64,000 bases of DNA from a bacterium (GCA_012838555.1 DUOZ01000115.1:2226-66225), one strand, 5' to 3'. Shown: positions 7,900-48,585, counted from the first letter of the stretch. Translations and numbers: made by a program. The notes: generated from the letters alone by a model not told the origin.

Positions 7900-7995
7900 T
7901 TAACTCCCTACTTTCTAATTTATAAAATTATACTATAAATACAAGAATAAATGAATAAAATTAAATAGATTTCTCAATGTTTTTAAATAATCTTT

Positions 7996-8091
7996 AATTG
8001 CCAAATTAACTTCCACACACAAACAGTCGCTTTTTAATATTATATGGAAGTTACCTTGGCAAGCCTTACTATGGAATTTACTTTGGCAATT
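7996..8091. repeat. Three copies of a 19-bp motif, one inverted and two direct
   Basis: Copy 1 at 7996-8014 is AATTGCCAAATTAACTTCC, the reverse complement of GGAAGTTAATTTGGCAATT. Copy 2 at 8046-8063 is GGAAGTTACCTTGGCAAG. Copy 3 at 8073-8091 is GGAATTTACTTTGGCAATT. Copies 2 and 3 are 27 bp apart. Confidence 0.6.
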
Positions 8092-8180
8092 AACAGTTTT
8101 TAAATAATACAAAGATTTAAAGGTTAGTGGAATTTTATTGATTTGATAGATTACTAAAATAAACCAATAATAAATATTAG

Positions 8181-8208
8181 TTGACAATCGCTTTATTTGT
8201 GGTAATAT
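8181..8208 (+). promoter_or_regulatory. Sigma-A promoter for degV (TTGACA-16 nt-TGgTAATAT)
   Basis: A consensus -35 TTGACA sits at 8181-8186. A 16-nt spacer leads to an extended -10 TGGTAATAT at 8200-8208, which is 55 nt upstream of the GTG start. Confidence 0.6.
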
Positions 8209-8216
8209 TTTCTTTG

Positions 8217-8237
8217 AAATTCAAATAGTTTGAATAT
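8217..8237 (+). promoter_or_regulatory. Palindromic operator-like site between the -10 and RBS of degV
   Basis: ATTCAAA-tag-TTTGAAT forms perfect 7-bp arms at 8219-8225 and 8229-8235. Confidence 0.35.
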
Positions 8238-8263
8238 CAAAGTAATAGAAAGTAGGTACTACC

Positions 8264-9115
8264 GTGAAAACAAAAATTGCAATTTTAACAGATAGTTCAT
8301 CTTCAATCTATAACGTAAAAGACCGTGCTGAAAATATTTTTATGTTAAACTCACCTGCTTATATAGGTGAAGAAATGTTTACTGATTTTGAGAAAAATTT
8401 AGATGCTCCTTTTTATGAAGCATTAGAAAAGGCCACTGTTATTCCTAGAACAAGTCAACCTTCAGTTGGGGAAACTTTAGAAATGTTTAATCATATTAAA
8501 TCACTAGGTTACACTGATGTGATTTATTTACCCATATCTAAAGCATTAAGTGGAACTTATCAAAATGGACATATGGCTAAAGAAATGGTAGAAGGTATTA
8601 ATATCACAATTGTTGATACCATGACTACAGTTTCCATTTTAGCTGCGATGACCTTAGAAGCTTCAAGACTTGCTAATGCTGGATTAAGTGTTAGCGAAAT
8701 TGTTGAAAAAATTACGATTCTTAGAGCGAATTCTAAATTCTTTGCAGCAGTGAAAGATTTAACAGCTTTAATTAAAAATGGCCGTTTATCAAATGCTAAA
8801 GGTTTTGTAGCCAATTTATTTAATATTAGACCGGTATTACATATGACTGATGATGGTAGAATAGTTGGTTTAAAAAATGTTAGAACATTCAACAACGCAC
8901 TAAAAGCATGTATTGAATTAATTGAAGAAGGCTTAGATCAAGAAAATGGGGAAATTCACTTACTTTATACAAAGAATACTGATGATATGGAATATACAAA
9001 ATCATTATTAATTGAACGCTTCCCTAAGACTCCGATTAAAGTCTTTACCTTACCTTCTACAGTTGTTGCGCATATTGGTCTTGAATCAATTGCAATTGGA
9101 TTTATTAACTATTAA
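8264..9115 (+). CDS. DegV-family fatty-acid-binding protein (FakB-like)
   Basis: It has a GTG start and is 283 aa. The N-terminal IAILTDSSSSI is typical of DegV. Confidence 0.85.
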   Translation: MKTKIAILTDSSSSIYNVKDRAENIFMLNSPAYIGEEMFTDFEKNLDAPFYEALEKATVIPRTSQPSVGETLEMFNHIKSLGYTDVIYLPISKALSGTYQNGHMAKEMVEGINITIVDTMTTVSILAAMTLEASRLANAGLSVSEIVEKITILRANSKFFAAVKDLTALIKNGRLSNAKGFVANLFNIRPVLHMTDDGRIVGLKNVRTFNNALKACIELIEEGLDQENGEIHLLYTKNTDDMEYTKSLLIERFPKTPIKVFTLPSTVVAHIGLESIAIGFINY

Positions 9116-9118
9116 ATA

Positions 9119-9143
9119 AGTCGGATTTCCGACTTTTTATTTT
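9119..9143 (+). terminator. Rho-independent terminator after degV
   Basis: The hairpin AGTCGG-ATTT-CCGACT is followed by TTTTTATTTT. It overlaps the stop of the convergent VOC gene. Confidence 0.55.
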
Positions 9144-9544
9144 GATACTTTAACTTGCAAAGATTCATTATGTAACTGCATAAACTCAATTTTATTGCCA
9201 TCATAGTCTTGGCACCAGCATTGATAGTTTTTATCTTTACCTTGAATAGGTTCAACATCAAGTTTAATGCCGTTTTTCTTTAAATGATTCGCAATCACAT
9301 TGATATCATCTACTTCTAGACATAAATGTGAATAACTTAACTTATCTTTATTAAATTCTTTCTCATTTGAATAGAATAATTCAATAAATTGATAAGGTTT
9401 AACTTTTAGATAAACAATCCACGGATTACCATTATCATCATCAATTGTAAAAGCTTTTTCAAATCCTAAGATGTCTTGGTAAAAATGTAGAGCTTTCTCC
9501 ATATTAGTAACGTTAAATGCTAGATGAGAAATACCTTTAATCAT
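9137..9544 (-). CDS. VOC-family protein (glyoxalase/bleomycin-resistance fold)
   Basis: It is 135 aa with an N-terminal GISHLAFNVTNMEKALHFYQDILGF glyoxalase-type motif. Confidence 0.7.
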   Translation of the reverse strand: MIKGISHLAFNVTNMEKALHFYQDILGFEKAFTIDDDNGNPWIVYLKVKPYQFIELFYSNEKEFNKDKLSYSHLCLEVDDINVIANHLKKNGIKLDVEPIQGKDKNYQCWCQDYDGNKIEFMQLHNESLQVKVSK

Positions 9545-10175
9545 TATTTGTTTCTCCTTTCTTAGTTAATAAAAATAAACAAATACTTGGCATAAAGAAT
9601 TTTTCTTTGATTTTAATCACTTTTATTAAATTAAAGTGTTCTTTAGTTAATGATTCTATCTTTTTGATTGATGGATACTTACCAAAACCAGTATAAAATT
9701 TTACAGCAAACATAGAAATTTTATCATAAAAGTTATTGATTGAAGCTTGTGCTAGTAATAAATAGCCATTATCATTTAATAGATTATTAAACTTTTTAAT
9801 AGCTTTTTCTTGATCTTGGTAATAAGGAAAAGAATGTGAACACATGATAATATCAAATTTTTCAACAGTCTCAAAATCAAAGATACTACTATTGTAGAAA
9901 GTAATATCTTTGTTTTTAATTTTAGCAAGTTCGAGCATTTTTGAAGATATGTCAACACCAATAATGTTAAGGTCATAGCTTATAAATTCATTTTTTACCT
10001 CATAGATAAGTTGTCCAATACCACAGCTCATATCTAAAATATTTAAACTAGTGCCAGGTTTAATGATGTTATGAAGCTCATTTATAATCGTGTTTCTTGT
10101 TGGACCTAGTGAGTATTTTTGTATCCAGTGCTTCTCATATTTGGTAGCCCAATAATCCCATACCTTCTTGCTCAA
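9537..10175 (-). CDS. Class I SAM-dependent methyltransferase
   Basis: The ILDMSCGIGQL motif is present. It overlaps the VOC gene by 8 nt. Confidence 0.7.
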   Translation of the reverse strand: MSKKVWDYWATKYEKHWIQKYSLGPTRNTIINELHNIIKPGTSLNILDMSCGIGQLIYEVKNEFISYDLNIIGVDISSKMLELAKIKNKDITFYNSSIFDFETVEKFDIIMCSHSFPYYQDQEKAIKKFNNLLNDNGYLLLAQASINNFYDKISMFAVKFYTGFGKYPSIKKIESLTKEHFNLIKVIKIKEKFFMPSICLFLLTKKGETNND

Positions 10176-10187
10176 TTTGAACGCTCT

Positions 10188-10970
10188 CTATTTAAACTCA
10201 AAATATGCTTCAATTGGATAGTGATCGGATAAGAATTTACCTTTTACTTTTTCTTGGAAGATAGCAACTTTGTTTAATTTAATTAAATCATTTACAAAGA
10301 TATGATCAATTGGTAATCCTTCCTTAGTCCCAGTAAAATTATGGAAGGTTGTTCCAAAATTATCTTCACTAATTAATTCATTTGCATGAATTAAGGAAGC
10401 AAAGTGTCTTAAATAATATAGAGGATCATCATTTTTAGTAGCATTGAAATCACCTGTAATAATAAGAGGTAATACTTCTTTTTGATTATGTTCATTAATT
10501 AAGTCTCTTAACATTTTTGCTCCTTCAACACGTGCTAATTCACTTTCATGATCTAAATGAGTGTTGTAAAAACGGAAGCGCAAAAATGGATTTTTAATGA
10601 AATAAAATTCACCATAAGTAATAATTCGTGGTAATGAAGCTTTAAAATCCTTTGTATTTGGGATCATAGGAGTTTTGCTTATCCAAATAGTCTCACTTTT
10701 TCTTACCCTTAAAATGTCGCTATTGTAGAAGATAGCATTATACTCTGCATTAAATTTGTTATTACTTCGAGGTACACCAATATATTGATAATCATGTAAA
10801 TTTTCGCATAAATCATCAATCATACCCTCAACACCCTCTTGGGTGCCAAAAATTAATGGTTTCCTATCATTTAAATAAGTAATGATACTATCAAGGCGAT
10901 AAGGCCAAGCATTTTCTTTATCATGATTTGTAGAAATCCTTAGATTAAATGTAAGTAATAGATGTTCCAT
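10188..10970 (-). CDS. Endonuclease/exonuclease/phosphatase (EEP) family protein, cytoplasmic
   Basis: It is 260 aa with LTFNLR near the N-terminus, GDFN and a C-terminal SDHYP motif. There is no signal peptide. Confidence 0.7.
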   Translation of the reverse strand: MEHLLLTFNLRISTNHDKENAWPYRLDSIITYLNDRKPLIFGTQEGVEGMIDDLCENLHDYQYIGVPRSNNKFNAEYNAIFYNSDILRVRKSETIWISKTPMIPNTKDFKASLPRIITYGEFYFIKNPFLRFRFYNTHLDHESELARVEGAKMLRDLINEHNQKEVLPLIITGDFNATKNDDPLYYLRHFASLIHANELISEDNFGTTFHNFTGTKEGLPIDHIFVNDLIKLNKVAIFQEKVKGKFLSDHYPIEAYFEFK

Positions 10971-10981
10971 AGATTCACCCC

Positions 10982-12709
10982 TTATTCTTTTAATGAAGCA
11001 TAATATAGTTTACTATAATAACCATTTTGATTTAATAAATCTTCGTGTTTTCCTCTTTCAACAATTCCTTCTTTATCCATAACAAGAATTTCATCAGCAT
11101 CTTTAATTGTTGTTAAACGATGGGCGATGATGATAGTTGTACGATTCTTAGCAAGTTCATCTAGTGATTCTTGAATGATTTTTTCAGTTATGTTATCTAG
11201 TGAAGAAGTAGCCTCATCTAAAATTAAGATTGAAGGGTCTTTTAAGAATAATCTAGCTATGGCAATTCTTTGTTTTTGCCCTCCACTTAAGCGTACGCCT
11301 CTTTCACCAACAATAGTATCATAACCATCTTCAAGTGATTCAATAAAGTCATGGATATTAGCCTTTTTAGCAGCTTCAATCACTTCTTCATCACTTGCAT
11401 TTACATTACCATATAATATATTTTCTTTAATTGTACCAAAAAAGATGAAGACATCTTGTTGAACGTGTCCAATCGCATTTCTTAATGAGAACAAATCATA
11501 ATCTTTGATGTTTACACCATCAATTAAAATTTCACCATCATCTATATCATAGAATCTCGGTACTAATTTGGAGATTGTTGATTTACCGACTCCAGTTTCT
11601 CCAATTAAACCAATTTTACTTCCTTTTTTAATATTAATAGTAAAGTCTTTTAAGACTTGCTCATTACTAGCAGGATAAGTAAAGTTTACATTTTTAAATT
11701 CAATCTCACCTTTAGGGTCAGTTAGTTTAACTGCATTTGGTTTAGATTGTATTGATGGTTTAATTTTAATAATCTCATAGAACTTTTCAAAACCAGTCCA
11801 AGCTTGATTAATTTGTTCCATGGAAGCTACTAAACGATTAATTGGTTTAACTAAATAGTTAAAATAAAGGAAGAAGGCAAATAATTCAGTTGTAGAAATA
11901 AAATTCAAGTAAACTAAATATGTGCCTACTGCTAATAAAACCAAGTTAGTTAAAAGGATTAAGAACTCATTACCAGTGTGGAAAATTGCCATTTGTTTAT
12001 ATGAATATTTCCATGATTGTTGATATTCGTTATTAATCTGTTTAAATTTCTTTTTTTCGTGTTCTTCATTAGTAAAGGCCTTAGTTAATCTAATTCCACT
12101 AATACTACTTTCTAGTTGAGAGTTTAATTCTCCATGGAAGTATCTAACGTTTCTAAATCCTTGTTGCATCTTTTTCCTTCGATTAAAGGAAAAGATGAAG
12201 ATAATGATAATCATAAAGGACATAATTAATGTTAAATAGACAGAACTAAACATTAAAATAATAAAACTTCCTATTAACATAATAAATGAAATAAACAAAT
12301 CTTCAGGTGCGTGATGTGACATTTCTGAAATATCACGCAAATTGTTAGTGATATTAGCCATTAATTGACCTGTTTTGTTTTGATCGAAAAATTCATAATC
12401 TAAGACTTCGTATTTATTAAATAGGTCTTGACGCATATCTTTTTCAATTCTAGTACCCATAATGTGCCCATAATAACTTACTACATATGAGAAGACTAAG
12501 CGTAGAATATAGGCAACTAATAAGCAAATAAGAACAATAAATATCATTCTAAAATTGTTATTAGGTAGTAAGTCTTCTAAGATAAGTTTAGATAAAAAGG
12601 GAAAAAGTAGATCTGTAAGTGCTAGCATTAAAGCACAGAATAAATCAATGATTAGTAATCTTAAATGTGGTTTATAATAACTTGCAAATTTTTTAAACAA
12701 ATAAATCAA
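10982..12709 (-). CDS. ABC exporter, fused TMD-NBD (MsbA/type I exporter-like)
   Basis: It is 575 aa with a six-TM N-terminal domain. The C-terminal NBD carries Walker A GETGVGKST, the signature LSGGQKQR and Walker B ILILDEATS. Confidence 0.85.
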   Translation of the reverse strand: MIYLFKKFASYYKPHLRLLIIDLFCALMLALTDLLFPFLSKLILEDLLPNNNFRMIFIVLICLLVAYILRLVFSYVVSYYGHIMGTRIEKDMRQDLFNKYEVLDYEFFDQNKTGQLMANITNNLRDISEMSHHAPEDLFISFIMLIGSFIILMFSSVYLTLIMSFMIIIIFIFSFNRRKKMQQGFRNVRYFHGELNSQLESSISGIRLTKAFTNEEHEKKKFKQINNEYQQSWKYSYKQMAIFHTGNEFLILLTNLVLLAVGTYLVYLNFISTTELFAFFLYFNYLVKPINRLVASMEQINQAWTGFEKFYEIIKIKPSIQSKPNAVKLTDPKGEIEFKNVNFTYPASNEQVLKDFTINIKKGSKIGLIGETGVGKSTISKLVPRFYDIDDGEILIDGVNIKDYDLFSLRNAIGHVQQDVFIFFGTIKENILYGNVNASDEEVIEAAKKANIHDFIESLEDGYDTIVGERGVRLSGGQKQRIAIARLFLKDPSILILDEATSSLDNITEKIIQESLDELAKNRTTIIIAHRLTTIKDADEILVMDKEGIVERGKHEDLLNQNGYYSKLYYASLKE

Positions 12710-12717
12710 CTCCTAAA

Positions 12718-14586
12718 CTAACGACCACCGCTTCCTCCTCCGCCACGGCCACCGCCTCCACCAGAGGAGAAGCCTCCTCTTCCACCACCACTACTACCAC
12801 TAACATAGCGTTGTGGAGAGAATGTTACTTTTCCAATATTGGAAATAGTTTGATATGGACTAACACCATAACTTCTCATCATCATAAAACTATATAGATA
12901 ACTAGTTCTAATGGTAGGATCATGTATAACCGTATCAAACTTCTTCTCTAACTGTTTGATTACTTTATCTGCAATGCCTAAAGCTACTGCATAGACTAAG
13001 TAATTTTCCCACATTACTAAGTCTTGAACTAGTTTTTCATTAATTAAGGTATAATCTTGTAAATAGTTGGCAAAAGCCTTAATTTCTTCATATTTATCTT
13101 CGCCTTGTTGTGTTAATCTTGTGAATTTAGGTCCTGTAATAATTAATATTGTTATTGCACATATCCCGACATTAATAGCACCAATGATTAAGAAGAATAT
13201 CCAATTTGTGAGTTTTGGTTCAATCATTACAAAAATAAATCCAGTAATTATTAAGATAATATTTAATAGAATTGGGGAAAAGCGTAAAACATTATATTTG
13301 TTAAGTTCAGTATCTACCCAATTTTGCTTATTAAATAAGACATTGAATTCACTTTTTACCCCAGCCATATCAGCTGAAAAACTAGTTGTATTCTTCTTTG
13401 CATATTTTTCAATATCTTTATCAGTTAAATTTACACCATCTGGACTTAACTTGGTAAATAATAAATGGACTATATCTCTTTCATAATTTGTTAAATCTTG
13501 TGGGTCATTATCAATTAATGTATAAGACATAGTAGGCTTTTTCTTGTTACCACTTACATCAATTGATATAACCTTTTTCTTAGCGAGACTTAATAAGGCA
13601 GACACAAACAAGTCATTACTAACATCAATACTGTAATAACGATATAATTTACCGGCTAAAATCGGATCCATATCAGGAATGCGATTAATTGAGCCTCGGT
13701 TAATACCTTTAAAGCGAGGGTATTTGGATTTTATATAAATGTTATAACTAATGATAATTAAACTTACGATAAATGCAAGGATGAAGCAAATATAAATAAG
13801 CATAGCATCTTTTTTGACTAATTCCATTGCAATTTCATTTTCTTTTATAACATCATCTAAAATAACGCCGTCTAATTTAGGGGCTTTAGTAAAGACACCA
13901 CTTGGGACTAATACTCTAATCTCAAAGCGTTCATTTGCATCTAGATTAGAAGCTTCAAAACTTAATTTATCTTCACCAATTTTGCCATCAACTGGTCCAT
14001 AACCATAACTGTATATATCATCTTTAGCAACATCACTTGGTAATTCAATATTTACTTTCATATTATAGATTGGGAAATCGTAGTTTCGAGCAATCATATA
14101 ATATAAATCAGCATAATCTTCATGAACCTTTACAAAGTCTTTAAATTTAAGATCCATGACAATTTTTTGGTCGAAATTTTCATTTCTTGGGAAATAATAT
14201 TCAATTATGTATTCCCCATTACTATAACCAAAGTAATATTGTCCATAATATTCACTTGGATTCATATCGCTTAAAGGCGCTCTATCTTCTGATTTAGTGT
14301 ATTTTTGATCATTTATATAAAGAGATAAGACTTCCATCTCATAGTCTTGGTAAGGGTCATTAAATGTAAAATACCTCACCGAATATGAATCATTAACATG
14401 TGTATCAATAGTGTAGGTGGCTAAAGCATCACCATTATCATCTAACTTTATATCAACATTAAATTCTTTAGCATAAACTCCATAATCATCTATTGAAGGC
14501 GGTAAAGATGACAAATAAATAATGAGTAAAGTTGCACCTAAAAGTGCACTAAACGCAAATAAAATACCAAATAAATTTCTTTTCAT
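12718..14586 (-). CDS. DUF2207-family membrane protein with Gly/Arg-rich C-terminal tail
   Basis: It is 622 aa with a signal/TM start and a large extracytoplasmic domain. Central TM helices are followed by the C-terminus SGSSGGGRGGFSSGGGGGRGGGGSGGR. It lies next to lemA. Confidence 0.65.
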   Translation of the reverse strand: MKRNLFGILFAFSALLGATLLIIYLSSLPPSIDDYGVYAKEFNVDIKLDDNGDALATYTIDTHVNDSYSVRYFTFNDPYQDYEMEVLSLYINDQKYTKSEDRAPLSDMNPSEYYGQYYFGYSNGEYIIEYYFPRNENFDQKIVMDLKFKDFVKVHEDYADLYYMIARNYDFPIYNMKVNIELPSDVAKDDIYSYGYGPVDGKIGEDKLSFEASNLDANERFEIRVLVPSGVFTKAPKLDGVILDDVIKENEIAMELVKKDAMLIYICFILAFIVSLIIISYNIYIKSKYPRFKGINRGSINRIPDMDPILAGKLYRYYSIDVSNDLFVSALLSLAKKKVISIDVSGNKKKPTMSYTLIDNDPQDLTNYERDIVHLLFTKLSPDGVNLTDKDIEKYAKKNTTSFSADMAGVKSEFNVLFNKQNWVDTELNKYNVLRFSPILLNIILIITGFIFVMIEPKLTNWIFFLIIGAINVGICAITILIITGPKFTRLTQQGEDKYEEIKAFANYLQDYTLINEKLVQDLVMWENYLVYAVALGIADKVIKQLEKKFDTVIHDPTIRTSYLYSFMMMRSYGVSPYQTISNIGKVTFSPQRYVSGSSGGGRGGFSSGGGGGRGGGGSGGR

Positions 14587-14597
14587 AGTGATTCTCC

Positions 14598-15131
14598 TTA
14601 ATCAGATACTTTGTATGTAGGATACTCAATTGTTGAAAATTTGAATATTTTTGCAACAATATTATTAGGGAATTTTTCAATAAAGCGGTTATAAGACATT
14701 ACCATTTCATTGTAGAAAAGTCTTTGGTAGGCGATTTGTTTTTCGGCATCATTAATTTCATCCATTAATTTAATATAACTATTATGAGATTGTAATGATG
14801 GGTAACCTTCTTTTATTAAATTAATAAGCACATTAAAATCTTCATTAGCTTCAATCTTTTCATTAATTGAAGCATTTAACATCTTACTTCTTAATTTAGT
14901 TAACTTTTCCAACTCTTCACTTTCAAATTTCATTTGACTTTTTAGTAAAGATGTTAGATTAGGTAATACTTCTGCCTTTCTTTTTAATTCAATATCAATT
15001 AATGACCAATTATAAGTAACTTTCTTCTTGTAATTAATGATTTTGTTATAAACATTAACAACATAGAAAGTTAGTAAAAGTAAAACTAAAATTATGACAA
15101 TAGCAATGTAAATATATAAATTCTCTTTCAT
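14598..15131 (-). CDS. lemA: LemA-family protein
   Basis: It is 177 aa with an N-terminal TM helix and a conserved LemA core (YN..I....ID.EL.RK.E..PNL). Confidence 0.8.
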   Translation of the reverse strand: MKENLYIYIAIVIILVLLLLTFYVVNVYNKIINYKKKVTYNWSLIDIELKRKAEVLPNLTSLLKSQMKFESEELEKLTKLRSKMLNASINEKIEANEDFNVLINLIKEGYPSLQSHNSYIKLMDEINDAEKQIAYQRLFYNEMVMSYNRFIEKFPNNIVAKIFKFSTIEYPTYKVSD

Positions 15132-15140
15132 ATAATCACC

Positions 15141-17957
15141 TTATTTCTTTTTAAGTGCCTGAATTGGATCAACGTTTGAAATCTTCATAGCAGGTAAAAT
15201 ACTAGCAATAACCGATAAGATTATAGCAGTTGTAAAGACAACTAGCAAAGCTTGTAAATCAAATGAAATGATATTGAAATTAGTTCTTATTATACCTAGT
15301 GTCATCAACGTAAGTGTTATTTGGAAAATATAATTTATGATAAATCCAATTACCATCGAGAATAAATAGGCGATTATCGAACTAATCACACCAATAATGA
15401 CTGTTTCATTAATAAATAATAGACCAATATCAAACTTTCTAGCACCCATGGTTCGCATGACACCAACTTCTTGTCGTCTTTCAATAATTGAAATAAAGCT
15501 AACCATGGAAATAAGCATTACCGCTACTAAAATAGAAATACTAGATAAAACAATCAAGACGGTCCTTACTCCTTCTACGGCACTATTAATTGAATTATTG
15601 ATTTCAACAATTTGATTAGAAAAAGTATAATCAGGATATAAATCTTTTAATTTACTCATCAAATTTGCGATATTAACATTTTTCTTTACAAATAAGAAAA
15701 TTGAATAATTATCAATAGGGACTAATTCCACTTGAGAATACACATCTATTGAATCATCGCTTTCTAATAAAAATATTTTATTAAAGAAATTATTAGGCCA
15801 ATTACTATAAGATAAAATAGAAAGTGTATCTTCGTTTAAAGCTACTCCTGTAATTGTTAATTCAAAATCAATACTATTAAAACTTTGTGTTAAATTACCG
15901 TATAGTTTTGTATTAACTAAACTATCATAGTTTTTAGGTTTTCCACTTAAAAGAGCATCAGCAAGTTTTTTAGAAATGACAACTTGATTTAAATCATTTT
16001 TAGAAGGAACACTACCTTTAATATTATAATACTTAATTGAAGTTTGACCATCTTCATTTAAAGGTCTAAAGGTAAAGATGTTTCCTTTCTTCGTATTAAA
16101 TAAGTTAGTTGGTAATTCATCAATAGGAATTTGATAATAATCAGGTCTTGAAGCATATAAATCACTTAACGATTCATCATTACTTAAAAAGACATTTGGT
16201 GAAAATTTAAGGATGTTTTCTTCAATTTCAAAGTATTTAGAGTTAACATAACTAATTAATTCATTAGAATTTTCTTTAATTATCTTATTAATCTCTGTAC
16301 TATTTAAAGGAATTCGATAAGCTCTTTGAATTTTGATATTCCTAGTTTCTTCTTCAGTTGTAAAGAAGTAGTATTCAGATAAATTAGGATTATTATTTAA
16401 TTCGTGTAATACTACTTTTGTATTTACATTATTTGTATAAGTAAGATTGTTTTCTAGTACTAATGCATTTTTATTAGTATTTGGGAATCTTACTATTTGA
16501 TAAGGACTATCTTTTAAGAAGTTCGTAGCAAAATCAGTGTTAGTATGGTAGATTTTGCTTTGTTCATAATAGTCACTGAGTCCTTCTGTTTCAACAAAAC
16601 CAACGATTCTAAATGTTTTATTATTTAAGAAACTAGAGTTATCTTCAAAAATCAACATCATCGGTTCATCATTAAGTAACTCTGATGCTTTTTGAATCGA
16701 ACAAGTTATTCTAGAAGATTCATAATAATCGCAAACATTAAGATATTGTCGACTGTTAACTAAGATTTCATTATCTTCAAGTGGTTTTGTTAAACTAGGA
16801 GTAATCCTTTCATCTTCATAAGAAACATAATTATAATTAAGTAAGTCTACTAATGTAGTAATAGTATAATTTTTATCTGTTTTTAAGGAAATACCGAAAT
16901 TAATCTGATAATAAGAAGGTGAATATGTTTGATATTTAATTAAATCAACATCTCCACTATTACTTATTACATAATCATAATCAGCATCAGAGATTTGTTT
17001 ATTAATATTTTTATTTGTTTTACCTACTTCAATATAATTTTCGCTTTTTAAGCCACCAAGAGCATCGACAATAAATCTTTGGAAACCATTGGTTAATGTT
17101 ATTGCAAGTGCGATACCAGTTAAACCAATTGCTAAACCAATTGATGATAATATATTTCTTGCTTTATGTAAACCCAGTGATCTAAAGGCAATTTTTAAGT
17201 TAGTTAAAAATGGTAGTTTACCTTTCCTATTTCCTTTTCTTTTTTTAGTTAAGTTAATGTTTAAGTTAGATTCTTTAACATTTTCTTCATTATTTATTAT
17301 ATTTATGATTTGTCCATCTTTCATTTGGAATATCTTTGAAGCATATTCATAAGCAAATTTTTCTTCATGAGTAACCATGATGATTAAACGTTCTGATGAT
17401 AGTTTTTGAAGAATATCTAAAATAATTCTAGAGTTCTTAGAGTCTAGTTCACCTGTAGGTTCATCTGCTAGAATGATTTTTGGATCATTCATTAAGGCTC
17501 GAGCGATGACAACTCTTTGCTTTTGACCACCTGAAAGAGTATTAACTTTTCTTCTTCTTAAGTCATAGATATTTAACAACTTTAAGATTTCAGTCGCTCT
17601 TTTTTCTTGAATCTGACTAGGTTGAGAGTCAATTTGAAGTGGGAAAATTATATTTTCATAAACGGTTAATGAATTTAATAAAACGGCATGTTGAAAGATA
17701 AAACCAATTGTATCTTTACGATAATCATTTATTTTATTCTTACTTTTAGCATCAATAACACGATTATCAATCATGATACTTCCTTCAAAGTCACTATCCA
17801 TACCACCGATAATATTTAGTAAGGTTGTTTTACCACATCCTGAAGGACCTAAAATAGCAAATAACCCTTTTTCAGGTAATTCAAAGGAAATATTATGTAA
17901 AGCTTTAAATTCAATTTTACCTTTATAGGTTTTATTAATATTTCTAACTTTTAACAT
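15141..17957 (-). CDS. ABC transporter with fused N-terminal NBD and C-terminal FtsX-like permease (MacB architecture), 938 aa
   Basis: It carries Walker A GPSGCGKTT, the signature LSGGQKQR and Walker B ILADEPTGELD. A roughly 550-aa extracytoplasmic domain precedes a C-terminal FtsX four-TM bundle. Confidence 0.75.
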   Translation of the reverse strand: MLKVRNINKTYKGKIEFKALHNISFELPEKGLFAILGPSGCGKTTLLNIIGGMDSDFEGSIMIDNRVIDAKSKNKINDYRKDTIGFIFQHAVLLNSLTVYENIIFPLQIDSQPSQIQEKRATEILKLLNIYDLRRRKVNTLSGGQKQRVVIARALMNDPKIILADEPTGELDSKNSRIILDILQKLSSERLIIMVTHEEKFAYEYASKIFQMKDGQIINIINNEENVKESNLNINLTKKRKGNRKGKLPFLTNLKIAFRSLGLHKARNILSSIGLAIGLTGIALAITLTNGFQRFIVDALGGLKSENYIEVGKTNKNINKQISDADYDYVISNSGDVDLIKYQTYSPSYYQINFGISLKTDKNYTITTLVDLLNYNYVSYEDERITPSLTKPLEDNEILVNSRQYLNVCDYYESSRITCSIQKASELLNDEPMMLIFEDNSSFLNNKTFRIVGFVETEGLSDYYEQSKIYHTNTDFATNFLKDSPYQIVRFPNTNKNALVLENNLTYTNNVNTKVVLHELNNNPNLSEYYFFTTEEETRNIKIQRAYRIPLNSTEINKIIKENSNELISYVNSKYFEIEENILKFSPNVFLSNDESLSDLYASRPDYYQIPIDELPTNLFNTKKGNIFTFRPLNEDGQTSIKYYNIKGSVPSKNDLNQVVISKKLADALLSGKPKNYDSLVNTKLYGNLTQSFNSIDFELTITGVALNEDTLSILSYSNWPNNFFNKIFLLESDDSIDVYSQVELVPIDNYSIFLFVKKNVNIANLMSKLKDLYPDYTFSNQIVEINNSINSAVEGVRTVLIVLSSISILVAVMLISMVSFISIIERRQEVGVMRTMGARKFDIGLLFINETVIIGVISSIIAYLFSMVIGFIINYIFQITLTLMTLGIIRTNFNIISFDLQALLVVFTTAIILSVIASILPAMKISNVDPIQALKKK

Positions 17958-17971
17958 GTTTTTTCACCTTC

Positions 17972-20131
17972 TTACTCTTCTCTTAAAACATCAACGATTG
18001 GTAACTTAGCAGCTTTTCTAGCAGGGAAGATTCCTGAAAGATAGGCTACTAATGATGAAATTAGAACTAATAAAATTGGAACGGAAAACGGAAGGTATTT
18101 AAAGAGGATGTTTCCACTATAAGTTATACCTCTAATAATCGGAATATTAATAATCATAAAGTTATAATCGATTCCCAAGATACTTGGAGATAAGAAATAC
18201 ACGATGATTTGAATAACGAGTGCAATAGCAAGTCCTGTTAAAGCAGCTAGAACACCTACAATAAAGGCTTCTGATAACACATATCTTTTTATATCTTTAT
18301 TGGTGCTTCCTAAAGCCCTTAAAATACCTAGTTCTAGCCGTTTTTCAATCACCGATGTATATAGTAGGATTGCTAACATAAACATTGAAACTACCATCGC
18401 TGTTACAATAAACATAGATAAAATAAACTGAGCAACCCCAATCGCAGTTGAAATAATACTCTTAAATTCAATACTTAAATCGGAGATGCTTAAGAAACTA
18501 TTTTTTGATGCATCTAATAAATCAGAGTTTTTAATACTTGAAATTATATTTAGGATATTCTGTGTATCTAAAATAACTAATTCTTTGTTTAATAAACAAA
18601 TAGAATAAGTGGTACTACAAGTTTGGGAGGTTAATTTATCAATTAAATTAGGAGCTAAACTCTCGATTTTATTATAAAAAGTATTATAGTAAAGATAAAT
18701 TTTAGGTGATGAGAATAATTCTAATTCATTTAAAATACCGACAATTGTCAATGTTTCATTAAAGTTAACAACATTTTGGTCGTGTCCATAAACATCATAG
18801 ACAGTAAAATTAAATTCTAAATGAATCTTCTTACCTATATAATCTTCATAATTACTTTCTATTCCCGCTCTATTATTTATATCGTTGATAAAGGAAGTGT
18901 TTACTATAACTTCATTAATATTATTAGATGAAGCAAAACGGCTACCTTTTACAAAATATTTTTCATAATGCTTTAAATAATTACTATCTGAAACTAATGA
19001 GATATTTGTATGTGAATAATAAACATTATAAGATTCATCAGGTTCATTAATATAATATAAATCAAAATTTCTAGTTTTTCCTAAAATATCGTCTAAACTG
19101 TATCTGTAATCTAATCGATTTGATCCTACATCATTAACTAGTTCATTTAAAATCGTATTAGAAGGTGTTTCATAAGTATAACCCCCACCAACAGTTTTTC
19201 TAACATAACTAATAGGAATAATATTAGCATCCAAGTATTTATTGATTTGTTCATCGGCAAAACGATTAGCACCTTCACCTAAACCAATAATTAAGGCAAT
19301 ACCACTAATACCAATGGAACAAGCAACAACTGTCGCAATTAAACGACCTAAATGGTTTTTGATTGATTTAAGGATCATTCTAATGCCATCTTTATATTTT
19401 AAACCTTTACTTGAGAAACGAAGTCTAGAATTACTAGTATCAGTTACAGGGTTTATAACTTCATCATAAGTAATTAAGCCGTCTTCCATTTTAATTATTC
19501 TTGTTGCGTATTCATAAGCAAAATCATGATTATGTGTAACCATGATTAATAATTTATCTTTTGCAATTTCTTTTAATAAAGTCATGATTTCCACAGCAGT
19601 CTTTGAATCAAGTGAACCTGTTGGTTCATCTGCCAAAATAATATCCGGATTGTTAATTAAAGCTCTAGCGATTGCAACTCTTTGTTTTTCTCCACCTGAA
19701 AGTTCAAGCGGGGTATTATGATGTTTTTGACTAAGCCCGACTTTATCAAGCATTTCTTTAGCCCTTTGTGTTCTTTCATTTAGACTAACACCTGCAACAG
19801 CTAAAGGAAGGGCAACATTTTCTATTGCTGTTAATGAATTGATTAAATTAAAATGTTGAAAGATAAATCCAACATTATGTCTACGATAAATATCCCAACT
19901 ATGTTTATTAAAACTTCTAGTTGATTGACCTTGTATGATAATTTCACCACTTGATGGTACTTCTAAGCCACTGATAACATTAAGTAATGTTGATTTACCG
20001 CAACCAGAAGGACCTAAAACGGCAATAAATTCATTGCGATTAAATTCAAGATTTATACCACCTAAAGCTCTAATGCCTTCATAACCGCTTTTATAAATTT
20101 TAATTAAATTTTTAACTTTCATTAAAGCCAT
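17972..20131 (-). CDS. ABC transporter with fused NBD and FtsX-like permease (MacB architecture), 719 aa, paralogue of the downstream gene
   Basis: It carries Walker A GPSGCGKST, the signature LSGGEKQR and Walker B ILADEPTGSLD. Its C-terminus is FtsX-like. A GGGGTGA RBS precedes the start. Confidence 0.75.
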   Translation of the reverse strand: MALMKVKNLIKIYKSGYEGIRALGGINLEFNRNEFIAVLGPSGCGKSTLLNVISGLEVPSSGEIIIQGQSTRSFNKHSWDIYRRHNVGFIFQHFNLINSLTAIENVALPLAVAGVSLNERTQRAKEMLDKVGLSQKHHNTPLELSGGEKQRVAIARALINNPDIILADEPTGSLDSKTAVEIMTLLKEIAKDKLLIMVTHNHDFAYEYATRIIKMEDGLITYDEVINPVTDTSNSRLRFSSKGLKYKDGIRMILKSIKNHLGRLIATVVACSIGISGIALIIGLGEGANRFADEQINKYLDANIIPISYVRKTVGGGYTYETPSNTILNELVNDVGSNRLDYRYSLDDILGKTRNFDLYYINEPDESYNVYYSHTNISLVSDSNYLKHYEKYFVKGSRFASSNNINEVIVNTSFINDINNRAGIESNYEDYIGKKIHLEFNFTVYDVYGHDQNVVNFNETLTIVGILNELELFSSPKIYLYYNTFYNKIESLAPNLIDKLTSQTCSTTYSICLLNKELVILDTQNILNIISSIKNSDLLDASKNSFLSISDLSIEFKSIISTAIGVAQFILSMFIVTAMVVSMFMLAILLYTSVIEKRLELGILRALGSTNKDIKRYVLSEAFIVGVLAALTGLAIALVIQIIVYFLSPSILGIDYNFMIINIPIIRGITYSGNILFKYLPFSVPILLVLISSLVAYLSGIFPARKAAKLPIVDVLREE

Positions 20132-20154: not shown

Positions 20155-20192
20155 TTAATTATACCATTAACGTACTTTCATTTGTTTTAAAA
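20155..20192 (-). promoter_or_regulatory. Candidate promoter for the nine-gene minus-strand operon
   Basis: On the minus strand an extended -10 TGGTATAAT maps to 20158-20166. An A/T-rich -35 region lies near 20183-20190. This is about 30 nt upstream of the ATG at 20131. Confidence 0.4.
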
Positions 20193-20224: not shown

Positions 20225-20253
20225 AAAAGATTGGTTTATTACTCCAATCTTTT
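20225..20253 (-). terminator. Rho-independent terminator ending the C1-folate operon
   Basis: A perfect 10-bp stem AAAAGATTGG/CCAATCTTTT has a 9-nt loop. On the minus strand it is followed by the U-rich TTAATTATT. It overlaps the DUF951 stop codon. Confidence 0.55.
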
Positions 20254-20473
20254 AGTCGGTTTTATCATCTTGAGCTTTACTAACTATTCTTTTTAACCTT
20301 TTATTAAAATTGTATCGTGTTAGCATAATAACATTTTTACAACCCTGACATTCAATTTTAATATCAGCACCCATTCTAACAATCTTAAAGATTTTACTTC
20401 TAGTATTACAAGGGTGTTCTTTTTTCATTTCAACAATATCATATAATCCATAATCAAGTTGGGTTGATGTCAT
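20252..20473 (-). CDS. DUF951-like small protein with CxxC...CxxC-like cysteines
   Basis: It is about 73 aa from the likely start MTSTQ (AGGA RBS). The motif DIVEMKKEHPC...RMGADIKIECQGCKNVIM matches my recollection of the DUF951 family. Confidence 0.5.
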   Translation of the reverse strand: MTSTQLDYGLYDIVEMKKEHPCNTRSKIFKIVRMGADIKIECQGCKNVIMLTRYNFNKRLKRIVSKAQDDKTD

Positions 20474-21353
20474 TTTTATCATCCTCACTAAGTTCCTTTT
20501 TAATAGGTATAGCTCTTTTAAAGTTATGTTCTTGACATAGTTTTAATAGTTCTAAGTTGAAGTCTCTTCTAAAAGCATATTGAGATAATGCTCTTACTTT
20601 AGTATGAATTTCAATTGTGTAACCAATTGTTTCAAATCCGGTTAATCCTTTAATTGCGGGATTTTCAATAATTTCAGGAAACTTTTCTTTAAAGTAATCC
20701 ATTTTAGAATTAAATATATTAACAAAACGATTAATATCATCATCAAAACTTAAAGATAAATTATTAACTACAATCGAATAATTAGCTAAAGTATAATTAA
20801 TAATTTTAGAGACATCACGGTTATTGATAATAATAACTTCACCTGTATAAGCGGTAAAAGTTGTCGTTTTAATACCAATGTTAGTAATTGTACCCATTGT
20901 TTCATCAATATTTACTAAATCACCAACATTATAACTTTTTTCAACAATGATAAAGAAACCTGCGACTATATCTTTTAATAAATCTTGGAAAGCAAAACCA
21001 ATGACGATTCCTATAACACCTGCGCCAGCAAATATAGTTGCTGGATCTAAGCCGATATATTGTAAAGAAAAGATAATTCCGATAACTAAGAAGATATATC
21101 GCATAAATGAACGAATTAAATTGTTTATTGTTCTAGCTCTTTTTTTATTGAAATCACCTTTAATGAATGAAACATATTTAGTCATTATAAAGACAACGAT
21201 TCTATAAACTACAAAACAAATTAAAACGACAATTAAAACACGACCTATGGATTTTAGTAGCTCCCAAGCCCATGTGAATTTAAGAAAGTCTTCAATAAAT
21301 TGGTTAAATCTATTCCTTAGTTCCTCCAATAGTATCACCTCGATAGCTGTCAA
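20454..21353 (-). CDS. Mechanosensitive ion channel (MscS family)
   Basis: An N-terminal TM helix is followed by the conserved MscS beta-domain GDLVNIDETMGTITNIGIKTTTFTAYTGEVIIINN. The start is ambiguous, with TTG/GTG options at 21353, 21338 and 21329. It overlaps folD by 20-44 nt. Confidence 0.75.
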   Translation of the reverse strand: MTAIEVILLEELRNRFNQFIEDFLKFTWAWELLKSIGRVLIVVLICFVVYRIVVFIMTKYVSFIKGDFNKKRARTINNLIRSFMRYIFLVIGIIFSLQYIGLDPATIFAGAGVIGIVIGFAFQDLLKDIVAGFFIIVEKSYNVGDLVNIDETMGTITNIGIKTTTFTAYTGEVIIINNRDVSKIINYTLANYSIVVNNLSLSFDDDINRFVNIFNSKMDYFKEKFPEIIENPAIKGLTGFETIGYTIEIHTKVRALSQYAFRRDFNLELLKLCQEHNFKRAIPIKKELSEDDKNDINPT

Positions 21354-22161
21354 TTAAGTTTTGCATTAAGGCAATGTTAGTTAAAGGTCCAACACCACCA
21401 GGTACTGGAGAGATTGCTCTTACAAATTCTTTGACACTTCTTTTAACGTCTCCGACCATTTTTCCATTTTCGTCATAGTGAATTCCTACATCAATTACGA
21501 TGCTATTAGGATTAAAGTATTTTTCATCGATAAATTCTTTTTGACCGATTGCTACTATTACTATATCTTTATTTTTACAGATATCTGGTAAGTTCTTTGT
21601 TTTTGAATGACATAATGTCACAGTAGCATCTTCATTATTTAAAAGTAGGAATAAAGGTTTTCCGACATTTCTACTTCGACCAATAACAGCAATATTTTCA
21701 CCATCTAGAGGAATCTTATAATATTTTAATAATTCAACAATAGCCCTAGCGGTAGCACCAACATGGCATTTATAGCCTTGGTATAATAAACCTAAATTAT
21801 GAAGAGTACATCCATCAATATCCTTTTTATAATCTAAATAAGAAAAGACGACATCTTCATCAATAGTATTACCTAAAGGTCGATCAATCATAATACCATC
21901 AACATTATTATCATTTGATAGTCTAACTACTAAATCAATCATTTGGTCTTGATTATATGATTCACAATCAAAAACCTCAACGCCAACACCGATTTCATTG
22001 GCTAGTCTTTGTCTTCCTTTTAAATAAGAAAGTGATCCACTATCTTTAGTAGAAATTAAAATCGCTAATTTTGGGTTTCTTCCTTTATAATATTTTTTTA
22101 TATCCTCAATTAAGGTAGCTTTTAATTCATTAGCAGCTTTTTTACCATCTAGAAGCATCAT
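21310..22161 (-). CDS. folD: Bifunctional methylene-THF dehydrogenase / methenyl-THF cyclohydrolase
   Basis: It is 283 aa with the C-terminal PVPGGVGPLT motif and the typical FolD layout. Confidence 0.85.
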   Translation of the reverse strand: MMLLDGKKAANELKATLIEDIKKYYKGRNPKLAILISTKDSGSLSYLKGRQRLANEIGVGVEVFDCESYNQDQMIDLVVRLSNDNNVDGIMIDRPLGNTIDEDVVFSYLDYKKDIDGCTLHNLGLLYQGYKCHVGATARAIVELLKYYKIPLDGENIAVIGRSRNVGKPLFLLLNNEDATVTLCHSKTKNLPDICKNKDIVIVAIGQKEFIDEKYFNPNSIVIDVGIHYDENGKMVGDVKRSVKEFVRAISPVPGGVGPLTNIALMQNLIDSYRGDTIGGTKE

Positions 22162-23823
22162 CTAAAATACCCCCTTGATCGTACCATCTTCTAAAATATC
22201 CATATTATTAGCAGCCGGAACCTTTGGCAAACCAGGCATCGTTAGAATTTTTCCAGTTAACGGAACAATAAATCCTGCACCATTAGATAATCTAATCCCT
22301 TTAATTGTAATATTAAATCCTCTAGGTCTTCCGATTAAAGCATCATTATCAGAAATGGAGTTTTGTGTTTTGGCCATACAGACTAATAAGTTATCTCTTC
22401 CATGGTTTTTTAATCTTTCAAGTTCATTTAAGGCCTCATTTGTATAAGTGACACCATCAGCACCATAAATACTCTTACAAATCTTTTCAATCTTTACTTC
22501 TAATGGTTCATTTACTTCATAAAGAGGTTTAAAGTTATTTTTAATAGGGATTGAATTAATAAACTTAGCTAATTCTACAGCTCCTTCTCCTCCATGAGCA
22601 TGAACATTACATAAGAATAAAGGATGATTATTTTCTTTACACCAATTAGTTAGGGCTTCTATTTCGCTTTCATCATCGCTAGCAAATTGGTTAATAGCGA
22701 CGATATAAGGCAAATTGTATGAAGCAATATTTTCAATATGTTTTTCTAAGTTAGGGATACCCTTCATTAAAGCGTCTGGATCAGGAGTAATTAAATCGCT
22801 TCGATCTTTACCTCCGTGCATTTTTAAAGCTCTAATAGTTGCTACAATTACCACTGCTGAAGGTCTTAAATTACCTTGTCTACATTTAATGTCTAAAAAT
22901 TTTTCAGCACCTAAATCAGCACCAAAACCTGCTTCTGTTACTACAACATCACTCATCTTTAAAGCCATTTTTGTTGCAATAATAGAGTTACAGCCATGAG
23001 CAATATTAGCAAAAGGACCTCCATGAATAAAGGCAGGACCACCTTCAAGTGTTTGAACTAGATTAGGTTTAATCGCATCTTTCATCACTACACCTAAGGC
23101 ACCTACAATGTTTAAGTCTTTTACGTATACTGGTTCATCATCATAAGTGTAAGCCACAACCATATTACCGATTTTCTTTTTAAAATCGTTTAAATCATTA
23201 GATAAACATAAAATAGCCATAACTTCACTTGCTACAGTAATATTAAAACCGTCTTCTCTTTCAACGCCATTACCTTTGCCTTTACCAATTGTGATATTTC
23301 TTAAGGTACGATCATTCATATCCATACAACGTTTAATAACGACTCTTGTTGGGTCAATATTTAATTGATTCCCTTGATGGATATGATTATCTAAACAAGC
23401 ACAGATTAAGTTATTAGCTGTTGTTATTGCATGCATATCACCAGTAAAATGCAAGTTAATATCATCCATTGGAACAACTTGAGCATAACCTCCGCCTGCT
23501 GCCCCACCTTTTAAACCAAATACTGGACCTAGGGAAGGTTCTCTTAAGCAAATCATTGTTTTAGTTCCAATTTTTCTTAAAGCTTGGCCAAGACCAATAG
23601 TCATTGTTGTTTTACCTTCACCAGCTTTTGTTGGAGTAATCGCTGTTACTAAGATTAATTTTCCATCTTCATTATTTTTAATCTTTTCATAATAGTCTAA
23701 ATTAATTTTAGCTTTATAATGACCATATGGTTCAACAAAATCTAGAGGTATTTCACACTCTTTAGCCACATCTATGATTTTTCTTAACTTACAACTTTGA
23801 GCAATCTCAATATCACTTTTCAC
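22162..23823 (-). CDS. fhs: Formate--tetrahydrofolate ligase
   Basis: It is 553 aa with the [11 protein letters not shown]-loop and [11 protein letters not shown] motif. It abuts folD with no gap. Confidence 0.9.
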
Positions 23824-24468
23824 TTATTTTCCTCCTTCCAATCTATTCATTAATTTATTTAAGAGTGAAGATAATTTATTCACTCTAAGTTCTGTTGCCA
23901 TTTTAATTATATCGTTAACCTTATTAATAATATCTTCATCTTTGATATAAGGTAGGTTTATTTTTAAATTAACAATATTGGATTGGATACTACTATCAAG
24001 TAAAATAACCCCAATAATTAAATCACTTATAATTGATTTAACAACATATGGTTCGATTATTTCATATTGCTCATAAGCTTCTAAGCATGTTTCTAAAATA
24101 CGATAAGGAATCATTATATTTTTATTTGATGCTTCATTTAATCTTTTTTCTTTAATATTTTGTTCATTTTGAGTTGTAACTTTTAATTTATAAATATCCA
24201 TAAAATGATTAAAAGCATCTACGTCATTTTGAATTTCATCTAAAAGTGTTGTACCCAAAAGAGTTAACTTATCAGATGCTTCGTTAATTTGATGTTGAAT
24301 CTTTTCATCCAAAGATAAAAAACTCTTGCGTTTTTTAGAAATTAAGATAGCCATATTGGATAAGCCAATGCCTAAACTTAAAACATAACTAATAACGGCT
24401 CCTCCTCCAGGAGTAGGAGCATCACTATTAAGTAAATAATAAAACTGTTCAAGAGTTTTTCGTTTCAT
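23824..24468 (-). CDS. Cyclodeaminase/cyclohydrolase-family protein (FTCD C-terminal domain / FchA-like methenyl-THF cyclohydrolase)
   Basis: It is 214 aa. The N-terminal PTPGGGAVISYVLSLGIGLSNM is characteristic of the formiminotransferase-cyclodeaminase helical domain. Confidence 0.65.
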   Translation of the reverse strand: MKRKTLEQFYYLLNSDAPTPGGGAVISYVLSLGIGLSNMAILISKKRKSFLSLDEKIQHQINEASDKLTLLGTTLLDEIQNDVDAFNHFMDIYKLKVTTQNEQNIKEKRLNEASNKNIMIPYRILETCLEAYEQYEIIEPYVVKSIISDLIIGVILLDSSIQSNIVNLKINLPYIKDEDIINKVNDIIKMATELRVNKLSSLLNKLMNRLEGGK

Positions 24469-24470
24469 TT

Positions 24471-27125: not shown

Positions 27126-27132
27126 AAAGATA

Positions 27133-27167
27133 AAACTCTTCTTAAGGTTATTTCCCTAGAAGAGTTT
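27133..27167. terminator. Bidirectional rho-independent terminator between convergent genes
   Basis: A 12-bp stem AAACTCTTCTTA/TAAGAAGAGTTT has an 11-nt loop and T-rich flanks on both strands. Confidence 0.5.
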
Positions 27168-30663: not shown

Positions 30664-30696
30664 AAGAATCAAAGTTTTTCTATGACTTTGATTCTT
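30664..30696. terminator. Bidirectional terminator between gdhA and the convergent membrane-protein operon
   Basis: A perfect 12-bp stem AAGAATCAAAGT/ACTTTGATTCTT has a 9-nt loop. An A-run upstream gives a U-run on the minus strand, and T-rich sequence lies downstream. Confidence 0.6.
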
Positions 30697-31123: not shown

Positions 31124-31128
31124 TTTTA

Positions 31129-33191: not shown

Positions 33192-36068
<2,877 letters not shown>

Positions 36069-36301: not shown

Positions 36302-40755
<4,454 letters not shown>

Positions 40756-42225: not shown

Positions 42226-42227
42226 AG

Positions 42228-43658: not shown

Positions 43659-43660
43659 TT

Positions 43661-48537: not shown

Positions 48538-48550
48538 TAAATCATAAAAA

Positions 48551-48568: not shown

Positions 48569-48585
48569 CCGAAGGAGGAACTAAA

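Follow-up and report, generated by a model that had tools for sequence, protein, structure and literature searches.

Eight co-directional transporter, membrane-pair, and enzyme genes as a probable composite operon in a compact low-GC bacterial genome

Introduction

Does a tightly packed run of genes that links three ATP-binding cassette (ABC) proteins to a membrane-protein pair and three small enzymes encode one pathway, or does it record the stepwise filling of a single chromosomal position? The question is raised by a 64,000-nucleotide (nt) stretch of bacterial DNA (GCA_012838555.1 DUOZ01000115.1:2226-66225; hereafter, the window, with positions counted from its first letter), in which an uninterrupted run of minus-strand open reading frames (ORFs) spans positions 9137-20131. 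In order of transcription, the run encodes two MacB-type proteins (MacB1 and MacB2), a LemA family protein, a DUF2207 membrane protein, an MsbA-like half-transporter, an EEP-fold phosphoesterase, a class I S-adenosylmethionine-dependent methyltransferase, and a VOC/glyoxalase-fold protein (Table 1). An initial annotation described a nine-gene operon, whereas we count eight genes, the number that its own title names; its placement of all of them on the minus strand holds over the whole run, and Pfam upholds every one of its domain labels. It also considered the combination to match no known pathway, which is our experience as well, and it offered two functions for the whole: an envelope-stress or lipid/peptide export module, or a self-immunity/export system. 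We consider it likely, instead, that the unit is a composite operon specific to its lineage, built from known families within an insertion-prone slot of a compact genome. Comparison with other loci shows that its genes come from at least four or five independent modules, which have gathered at a single chromosomal position.

An insertion-prone slot before a resident exporter gene

With the membrane domain of the MsbA-like protein (the best conserved protein of the unit) as anchor, the comparison retrieved 47 metagenome loci, mostly at ~50% membrane-domain identity (ten, by blastp, at 56-60% over the full length). Homologues of MscS and DUF951, whose genes stand immediately upstream of the unit in the window, precede the MsbA-like gene in at least 20 related metagenome loci, its orthologues there being 57-59% identical. 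What lies between DUF951 and the MsbA-like gene varies. The slot is empty, with DUF951 abutting the MsbA-like gene, in at least ten loci, and it holds a single fused MacB gene of ~778 amino acids (aa) in at least ten more, with this gene ending ~2-3 nt before the MsbA-like start and its product being about equally distant from MacB1 and MacB2. The filling found in the window, MacB1-MacB2-LemA-DUF2207, occurs only in three collinear sister species, and homologues of LemA, DUF2207, EEP, methyltransferase, and VOC were found in none of the 47 MsbA-anchored loci. As read from these neighborhoods, the MsbA-like gene is the resident gene of a conserved slot.

MscS, DUF951, the slot, and the MsbA-like gene form a backbone, with the slot filled to different degrees: some relatives have one MacB-type gene inserted before the MsbA-like gene, and the small clade of the window has two old MacB paralogues together with the LemA-DUF2207 pair. 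In that clade the EEP gene was added behind the exporter. Of the three species sampled, only two gained or kept the methyltransferase-VOC pair. Co-transcription would then reflect genome compaction and a shared need for membrane-related expression, rather than one pathway. The conserved MscS-DUF951-MsbA-like backbone, with its insertion-prone slot between DUF951 and the MsbA-like gene, can be reused in the reading of other genomes.

The closest relatives bear on how much weight the gene order can carry. The window species is present on six metagenome contigs (L001-L006) with an identical arrangement. A sister species (L137) has all eight genes at 55-85% protein identity, and a more distant sister (L007/L008) has the first six at 47-73% identity, without the methyltransferase and VOC genes. 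The flanks are collinear in all three species, with a flavin adenine dinucleotide (FAD) enzyme, FTCD_C, FTHFS, FolD, MscS, and DUF951 on the left and DegV, a 180-aa ORF, peptidase M29, and HAD on the right. Because this collinearity extends over the whole 20 kb, the conserved order represents inherited synteny and not independent evidence of coupling. In the neighborhood analysis that the initial annotation had proposed as a check, the order is kept only in two close relatives; both are collinear with the window, and one of them lacks the methyltransferase and VOC genes. Recurrence of the gene set where flanking synteny has decayed was not seen; the set occurs only in the window species, L137, and L007/L008, and is absent from the 47 MsbA-anchored loci, from 80 loci anchored on DUF2207, and from the four contexts of EEP relatives described below.

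A horizontally transferred island was considered and rejected, as the GC content of the cluster (27-30%) is like that found elsewhere in the window and the cluster is flanked by housekeeping genes. The genome, which was assembled from a metagenome, is gene-dense, at ~29% GC.

Table 1. Features of the eight-gene unit and of its edges, with window positions
Feature	Position	Strand	Details
MacB1, fused nucleotide-binding domain (NBD)-FtsX type VII ABC protein	17972-20131	-	719 aa; Pfam
MacB2, fused NBD-FtsX type VII ABC protein	15141-17957	-	938 aa; Pfam
LemA family protein	14598-15131	-	177 aa; Pfam LemA
DUF2207 membrane protein	12718-14586	-	622 aa; Pfam DUF2207 and DUF2207_C
MsbA-like ABCB-type half-transporter	10982-12709	-	575 aa from first TTG; Pfam
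EEP-fold phosphoesterase	10188-10970	-	260 aa; Pfam Exo_endo_phos
Class I S-adenosylmethionine-dependent methyltransferase	9537-10175	-	212 aa; TTG start; Pfam
VOC/glyoxalase-fold protein	9137-9544	-	135 aa; Pfam Glyoxalase
Extended -10 element, TGGTATAAT	20158-20166	-	poor -35; 27 nt before MacB1 ATG; read from sequence
Terminator-like hairpin, 5' boundary of unit	20225-20253	-	10-bp stem, U-rich tail; begins in DUF951 stop codon
Bidirectional hairpin between VOC gene and convergent DegV, 3' boundary of unit	9118-9135		terminator scan and fold
DUF951 gene, left edge of slot, outside unit	20252-20488	-	Pfam on identical contig L001
MscS-like channel gene, left edge of slot, outside unit	20454-21353	-	Pfam on identical contig L001

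The LemA-DUF2207 pair recurs without these neighbors

The LemA protein matches Pfam LemA at 3e-32 (111.9 bits) and the four-helix structure 2etd, a 'lemA protein' in the PDB, at 1e-20; one N-terminal transmembrane (TM) helix (residues 7-25) is followed by a helical bundle. Its partner matches DUF2207 at 2e-13 (51.3 bits) and DUF2207_C at 3.9e-43 (148.4 bits). With Pfam scores above gathering and adjacent, co-directional genes separated by 11 nt, the two share families, adjacency, and LemA-first order with known LemA-DUF2207 pairs (PF04011 with PF09972/PF20990). Unlike other such pairs, this one is wedged between ABC transporter genes, a context seen only in the small clade of the window.

Among 80 distant loci from many phyla that were anchored on DUF2207, LemA is the sole recurrent neighbor: 21 loci have it next to DUF2207 and on the same strand, upstream in 16 of these 21 and downstream in five, in line with the recurrent pairing that the initial annotation had supposed. 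An ABC ATPase domain lies within 4 kb in only 2 of the 80 loci, and homologues of EEP, methyltransferase, and VOC were found in none of them by tblastn; a further DUF2207 relative is solitary. This genome-contig scan was seeded on the Gly-rich tail of the protein and reached relatives that are 19-28% identical, with Collinsella over-sampled and the window's own clade not among the matches. The tblastn threshold (E<1e-4) could miss very divergent FtsX domains, a gap that the ATPase-domain check covers, and a word-index homologue search with DUF2207 was thin (eight proteins). That LemA-DUF2207 pairs recur independently of their neighbors agrees with the literature, where the pair has been noted in Proteiniphilum saccharofermentans (PMC12631010), and adds support for an autonomous pair that travels independently of neighboring genes.

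An AlphaFold model of the DUF2207 protein (mean predicted local distance difference test score [pLDDT], 75.6) begins with an anchor, a beta-sandwich outer domain (residues 35-235), and a long TM helix. An alpha/beta domain comes next, then a second and third TM helix beyond the anchor and first one, a helical domain, and a Gly-rich tail that is disordered. The outer domain, which the initial annotation had singled out for modeling, resembles the non-catalytic N-terminal domain of LTA4H/M1 aminopeptidases and that of Ost1/ribophorin I (Foldseek, E 3e-7 to 1e-4), a likeness that implies no catalytic site. By the positive-inside rule, the LemA bundle and the C-terminal domains of DUF2207 are both predicted to be cytoplasmic. 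Residues 300-420 of DUF2207, between TM2 and TM3 and predicted to be cytoplasmic, form a helix-helix-beta-hairpin with a winged-helix-like look in the model.

In Streptococcus mutans, loss of the DUF2207 protein SMU.243 impaired acid and oxidative stress tolerance and biofilm formation, and left the minimum inhibitory concentrations of cell-wall antimicrobials unchanged (PMC10457818). The LemA homologue MamQ is required for magnetosome formation and is placed, in a summary table, under magnetosome-membrane formation (PMC3905215). From family knowledge, the pair in the window may act as an autonomous membrane-homeostasis or stress pair. An alternative that we regard as quite unlikely is that the pair was recruited in this clade as a partner of a MacB1/MacB2 heterodimer, and possibly of the MsbA-like protein, so that the six-gene core would be an envelope-maintenance device. 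If true, it would provide the first mechanistic handle on the widespread LemA and DUF2207 families, with the locus as a tractable entry point.

An EEP subfamily tied to glycan-utilization loci

The phosphoesterase matches Pfam Exo_endo_phos at 7.3e-13, and its best solved relative is the PDB entry 4c1r, a 'mannosyl-6-phosphatase' (E 5.9e-29 over 231 residues) that represents the mannose-6-phosphatase BT3783 of Bacteroides thetaiotaomicron. The two proteins share the catalytic motifs NLR, GTQE, NTHLDH, TGDFN, and IDHIF, and both the overall similarity and the conserved catalytic residues are those of a BT3783-like EEP. Relatives at 39-47% identity have as neighbors glycoside hydrolase (GH) family 35/42 enzymes, a sulfatase, and a glycoamylase (L139, L140). 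An Acholeplasmataceae metagenome-assembled genome (MAG; L141/L142) encodes a relative next to a GH31 enzyme and a sugar ABC permease, and in L146 the neighbors are a GH38 alpha-mannosidase and a PfkB kinase. These four independent glycan-utilization contexts suggest a family-wide role as a sugar-phosphate phosphatase, and the protein in the window may accordingly be pictured, from family knowledge, as a mannose-6-phosphate-like sugar-phosphate phosphatase. The link between glycan-utilization loci and an EEP subfamily related to the Bacteroides mannose-6-phosphatase is an observation that can be reused elsewhere. The window protein deviates from BT3783 in lacking a signal peptide and in being encoded behind transporter genes rather than within a glycan locus. 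Hydropathy analysis found no hydrophobic segment in the EEP, methyltransferase, or VOC protein, so that all three are predicted to be cytoplasmic, and the EEP has neither a TM nor a signal segment, in keeping with its earlier description as cytoplasmic.

Elsewhere, in the regions 33210-36068 (+) and 48550-58583 (+), the window holds a GH2 beta-galactosidase and a sugar ABC importer, the latter with a GH32 enzyme (51809-54178) and more large ORFs behind it. The organism is saccharolytic, in keeping with a sugar-phosphatase role for the EEP.

The methyltransferase-VOC pair and the question of self-immunity

The last two genes, which overlap by 8 nt, are present in the window species and L137 and absent from L007/L008. 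The methyltransferase matches Pfam Methyltransf_31, _11, and _25, has a weak, generic likeness to other enzymes (ToxA-like methyltransferase, 1e-8), and reaches no NCBIfam equivalog at its cut-off. The VOC protein matches Pfam Glyoxalase at 8.9e-17, with a weak best PDB match to FosB (2e-8); it falls short of the models for glyoxalase I (GloA, 49.8 versus 165 bits) and FosB (41.8 versus 171 bits). As judged from their families, both proteins may act on small molecules, possibly in detoxification. PADLOC matches to mad2, mad3, and mad8 (e.g., MADS) were rejected, as they are generic methyltransferase-domain (mad2) and ABC-ATPase (mad3, mad8) matches; LemA, DUF2207, EEP, and VOC gave no PADLOC matches, and the unit does not make up an anti-phage system by this tool.

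These two genes are also where the proposal of a self-immunity/export system can be weighed. It holds that the ABC proteins export a small metabolite or antimicrobial peptide made elsewhere, while the methyltransferase, VOC, and EEP proteins modify or inactivate it. The presence of three ABC exporters is in line with such a role, as are the weak similarity of the VOC protein to FosB and bleomycin-resistance-type proteins and the resemblance of the ATPase domains to bacteriocin-export ATPases, at sub-threshold scores. However, neither the unit nor the DNA within 10 kb of it contains a biosynthetic, precursor-peptide, peptidase-domain, or regulatory gene, and the MsbA-like protein has no C39 peptidase domain by Pfam. 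Further, one sister species has kept the transporters but not the methyltransferase and VOC genes, the equivalog scores of the VOC and ABC proteins are all far under their cut-offs, and housekeeping genes (folate C1 metabolism, DegV) flank the unit. With no biosynthetic, regulatory, or membrane-fusion gene accompanying the unit, the self-immunity exporter is not supported, and we regard it as very improbable; an immunity role within a biosynthetic cluster was rejected for want of biosynthetic neighbors.

Three ABC proteins of known types and one unusual outer domain

No protein of the unit attains the NCBIfam cut-off of any named equivalog (such as MacB, LolD, MsbA, FosB, or GloA). MacB1 matches Pfam ABC_tran (1.4e-36) and FtsX (9.5e-11), with MacB_PCD at 24.3 bits, under the cut-off of 27; MacB2 matches ABC_tran, FtsX, and MacB_PCD (28.3 bits). 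In both, hydropathy analysis gives four hydrophobic segments, with an ATPase domain, TM1 (~residue 265-287), an outer domain (~285 aa in MacB1 and 512 residues in MacB2), and TM2-4 at the C-terminus. Both retain intact Walker A, signature, Walker B, and H-loop motifs, and PDB searches match the C-terminal membrane domains to the MacB, Spr0695, YtrF, and LolE structures. Both are thus of the type VII layout, in which an ATPase is joined to a four-TM FtsX domain whose TM1 and TM2 are separated by a large outer domain, a fusion that they share with the MacB/LolCDE/FtsEX/YtrEF systems. Orthology with Escherichia coli MacB is not indicated (NCBIfam NF007826, 218 and 207 bits versus a cut-off of 966).

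Two aspects set the pair apart from MacB-type systems. First, no MacA/YknX or outer-membrane partner is found in or near the unit, and Pfam labels give no membrane-fusion (HlyD/MacA) family either for the genes of the unit itself or for those up to 10 kb away on the identical contig L001; a tripartite MacAB-TolC-like pump was rejected on this ground. Second, two divergent fused paralogues stand in tandem. The ATPase domains of MacB1 and MacB2 are 37% identical and the membrane domains 25%, which marks the two proteins, by sequence divergence, as old paralogues, and their tandem arrangement suggests a MacB1/MacB2 heterodimer. Family knowledge would make of them a type VII 'mechanotransmission' ABC machine, probably a heterodimer with two competent ATP sites, that would move its large outer domains and thereby expel or process an extracytoplasmic substrate. 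With BceAB-RS the pair has in common an FtsX-family ABC transporter in a Gram-positive-type genome and a plausible envelope-stress response. BceB, however, has ten TM helices and works with a two-component system, whereas MacB1 and MacB2 have four TM helices each and no kinase or regulator, with no two-component system within 10 kb of the unit (Pfam labels, contig L001). A Bce-type antimicrobial-peptide module was rejected accordingly.

The near-orphan outer domain of MacB2 (residues 288-799; window 15561-17096, minus strand) is the one oddity of the operon. A search of 1.84 billion representative proteins gave only four matches at E<=1e-3, of which at least two are short fragments, and a word-index homologue search with the outer plus membrane region was thin (five proteins). 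The domain is the fastest evolving in the unit (47-58% identity, versus 73-85% for the MsbA-like membrane domain) and may be a rapidly evolving, surface-exposed domain. An AlphaFold model of MacB2 from a three-sequence alignment (mean pLDDT, 33) is unusable.

The MsbA-like protein has a membrane domain followed by an NBD (Pfam ABC_membrane, 2.4e-50; ABC_tran, 1.9e-29). Its start is likely the second TTG, at 12700, giving 572 aa, which is favored because it has a better AGGAG fit and is also the one chosen by public gene callers. Membrane and ATPase domains align end to end with the MsbA model, as in MsbA/ABCB type IV exporters, but the scores lie under the equivalog cut-offs (TIGR02203/NF008381, 452 versus 602 and 386 versus 867 bits). 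In addition, the host is a low-GC organism, and the closest named relatives of individual genes are labeled 'uncultured Bacilli' or come from Acholeplasmataceae/Acholeplasmatales MAGs. Lipid A is not expected in Bacilli or Acholeplasmatales. On these scores the protein is classed as a generic ABCB-type exporter, and it would function, as far as its family is a guide, as a homodimeric exporter of a lipid or other hydrophobic compound.

Predicted transcription and the meaning of tight packing

Each of the eight genes has its own Shine-Dalgarno sequence and is probably translated from its own ribosome-binding site. The gaps, from MacB1 to VOC, measure 14, 9, 11, 8, 11, 12, and -8 nt, and the 8-nt gap between DUF2207 and the MsbA-like gene becomes 17 nt with the start picked by public gene callers. 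The description of all gaps as 12 nt or less, or small overlaps, is therefore right for most junctions and for the 8-nt overlap, but one junction (14 nt) or two (with the 17 nt) exceed it. Such spacing is ordinary here. ORF calls cover ~96% of the window, and 28 of its 44 same-strand junctions are <=12 nt and 32 are <=14 nt. Seven tight junctions in succession have a chance of ~0.11, and comparable runs occur at 20252-25892, 38463-44362, and 49929-58583. Because the median same-strand gap of the window is 8 nt, packing lends the unit no special support; it is no more than chance for this genome and not meaningful evidence. More generally, tight co-directional spacing is the default in gene-dense, low-GC genomes and, alone, gives no support to the claim of a new pathway.

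The upstream hairpin folds at -9.3 kcal/mol (z = -3.1 versus shuffles), and behind it lies the extended -10 element that the initial annotation had called upstream of 20131. The hairpin and ATGGTATAAT are kept in L137, and TGTTATAAT is present in the corresponding DUF951/MacB1 spacer of L007. The downstream hairpin folds at -9.7 kcal/mol (minus strand, z = -4.0; plus strand, z = -3.1). The absence of internal terminators, also claimed earlier, is confirmed in that no gap exceeds 14-17 nt, which is too short for a terminator; the one terminator-like match in a coding region (19347-19332) is within chance (4 found versus 5.7 expected). The genes are thus co-directional, without an intergenic terminator, and bounded by a predicted promoter and terminator. 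Because of the hairpin and extended -10 upstream, the hairpin downstream, and the absence of intergenic terminators, a single transcript of eight genes is plausible and the simplest reading, as predicted from sequence, and one promoter probably drives all eight genes.

Alternatively, promoters inside AT-rich coding DNA could give rise to separate transcripts, for example, MacB1-MacB2, LemA-DUF2207, and MsbA-like to VOC, such that the unit would not be one operon. Many promoter-like hexamer pairs occur inside the unit, some of them TG-extended (such as 15248-15220 and 9874-9847), and the modules have independent evolutionary histories, both of which are in line with this possibility. Yet, such matches are no commoner than in shuffled sequence (109 versus 106 expected), which makes a promoter scan uninformative in this AT-rich DNA. 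With gaps of at most 14-17 nt and no intergenic terminator found, transcription from the first promoter should read through whether or not there are internal starts, and we see only a slim chance that the eight genes are not one operon.

One system or several modules

The principal rival to a composite operon is that the six-gene core (MacB1, MacB2, LemA, DUF2207, MsbA-like, and EEP) forms an integrated envelope-maintenance system. The ABC machines would have LemA-DUF2207 as accessory or sensing partners (for example, to export or remodel a surface glycolipid, lipoprotein, or peptide), and the EEP would trim a phosphorylated head group. Several observations weigh on its side and against a composite origin. 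The order and tight spacing of the core are intact in three species at 47-85% identity, including the most distant sister at 47-73%, and this retention is compatible with selection on co-expression. MacB lies directly before the MsbA-like gene in at least ten further loci, which leaves room for some functional link between these two. Of the six products, five are membrane proteins that carry large domains, either outer or membrane-proximal, and a single promoter precedes genes that have no space between them for internal terminators. The uneven sampling of the compared loci is a further caution against the composite reading.

Against this, collinearity among the three species that share the core runs through the entire 20 kb, at least ten relatives have nothing in the slot, and tight spacing is the genome-wide norm. 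An ABC gene close to DUF2207 in only 2 of 80 loci, together with EEP relatives in glycan-catabolism loci and not beside exporters, speaks against one functional system, and an order confined to collinear relatives, with none of the 47 MsbA loci containing the other modules, speaks against the single envelope, lipid, or peptide export module that had been suggested. We therefore hold the integrated system to be unlikely and favor the composite operon. In a composite operon of known families, only two points are mildly unusual, namely, that MacB2 has an orphan outer domain and that the EEP subfamily has a link to glycans.

Other features of the window

No tRNA genes and no Rfam matches were found in the window. 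Its 64 kb contain three DegV-family (fatty-acid-binding) paralogues, at 8264-9115 (+), 44542-45411 (-), and 45550-46479 (-), two of them in tandem. On contig L001, an extra 420-aa HTH_38 gene (16888-18150), possibly an insertion sequence-type transposase, lies between DegV and a 186-aa ORF. It maps to the window spacer at ~7900-8263 and is absent from the window and from L002, a strain-level insertion polymorphism. Finally, several ORFs of 115-312 aa without a Pfam match, at 26187-27515 and 30680-32180, adjoin a LytTR-domain regulator (27532-28083) and a DUF2232 membrane protein (32187-33074).

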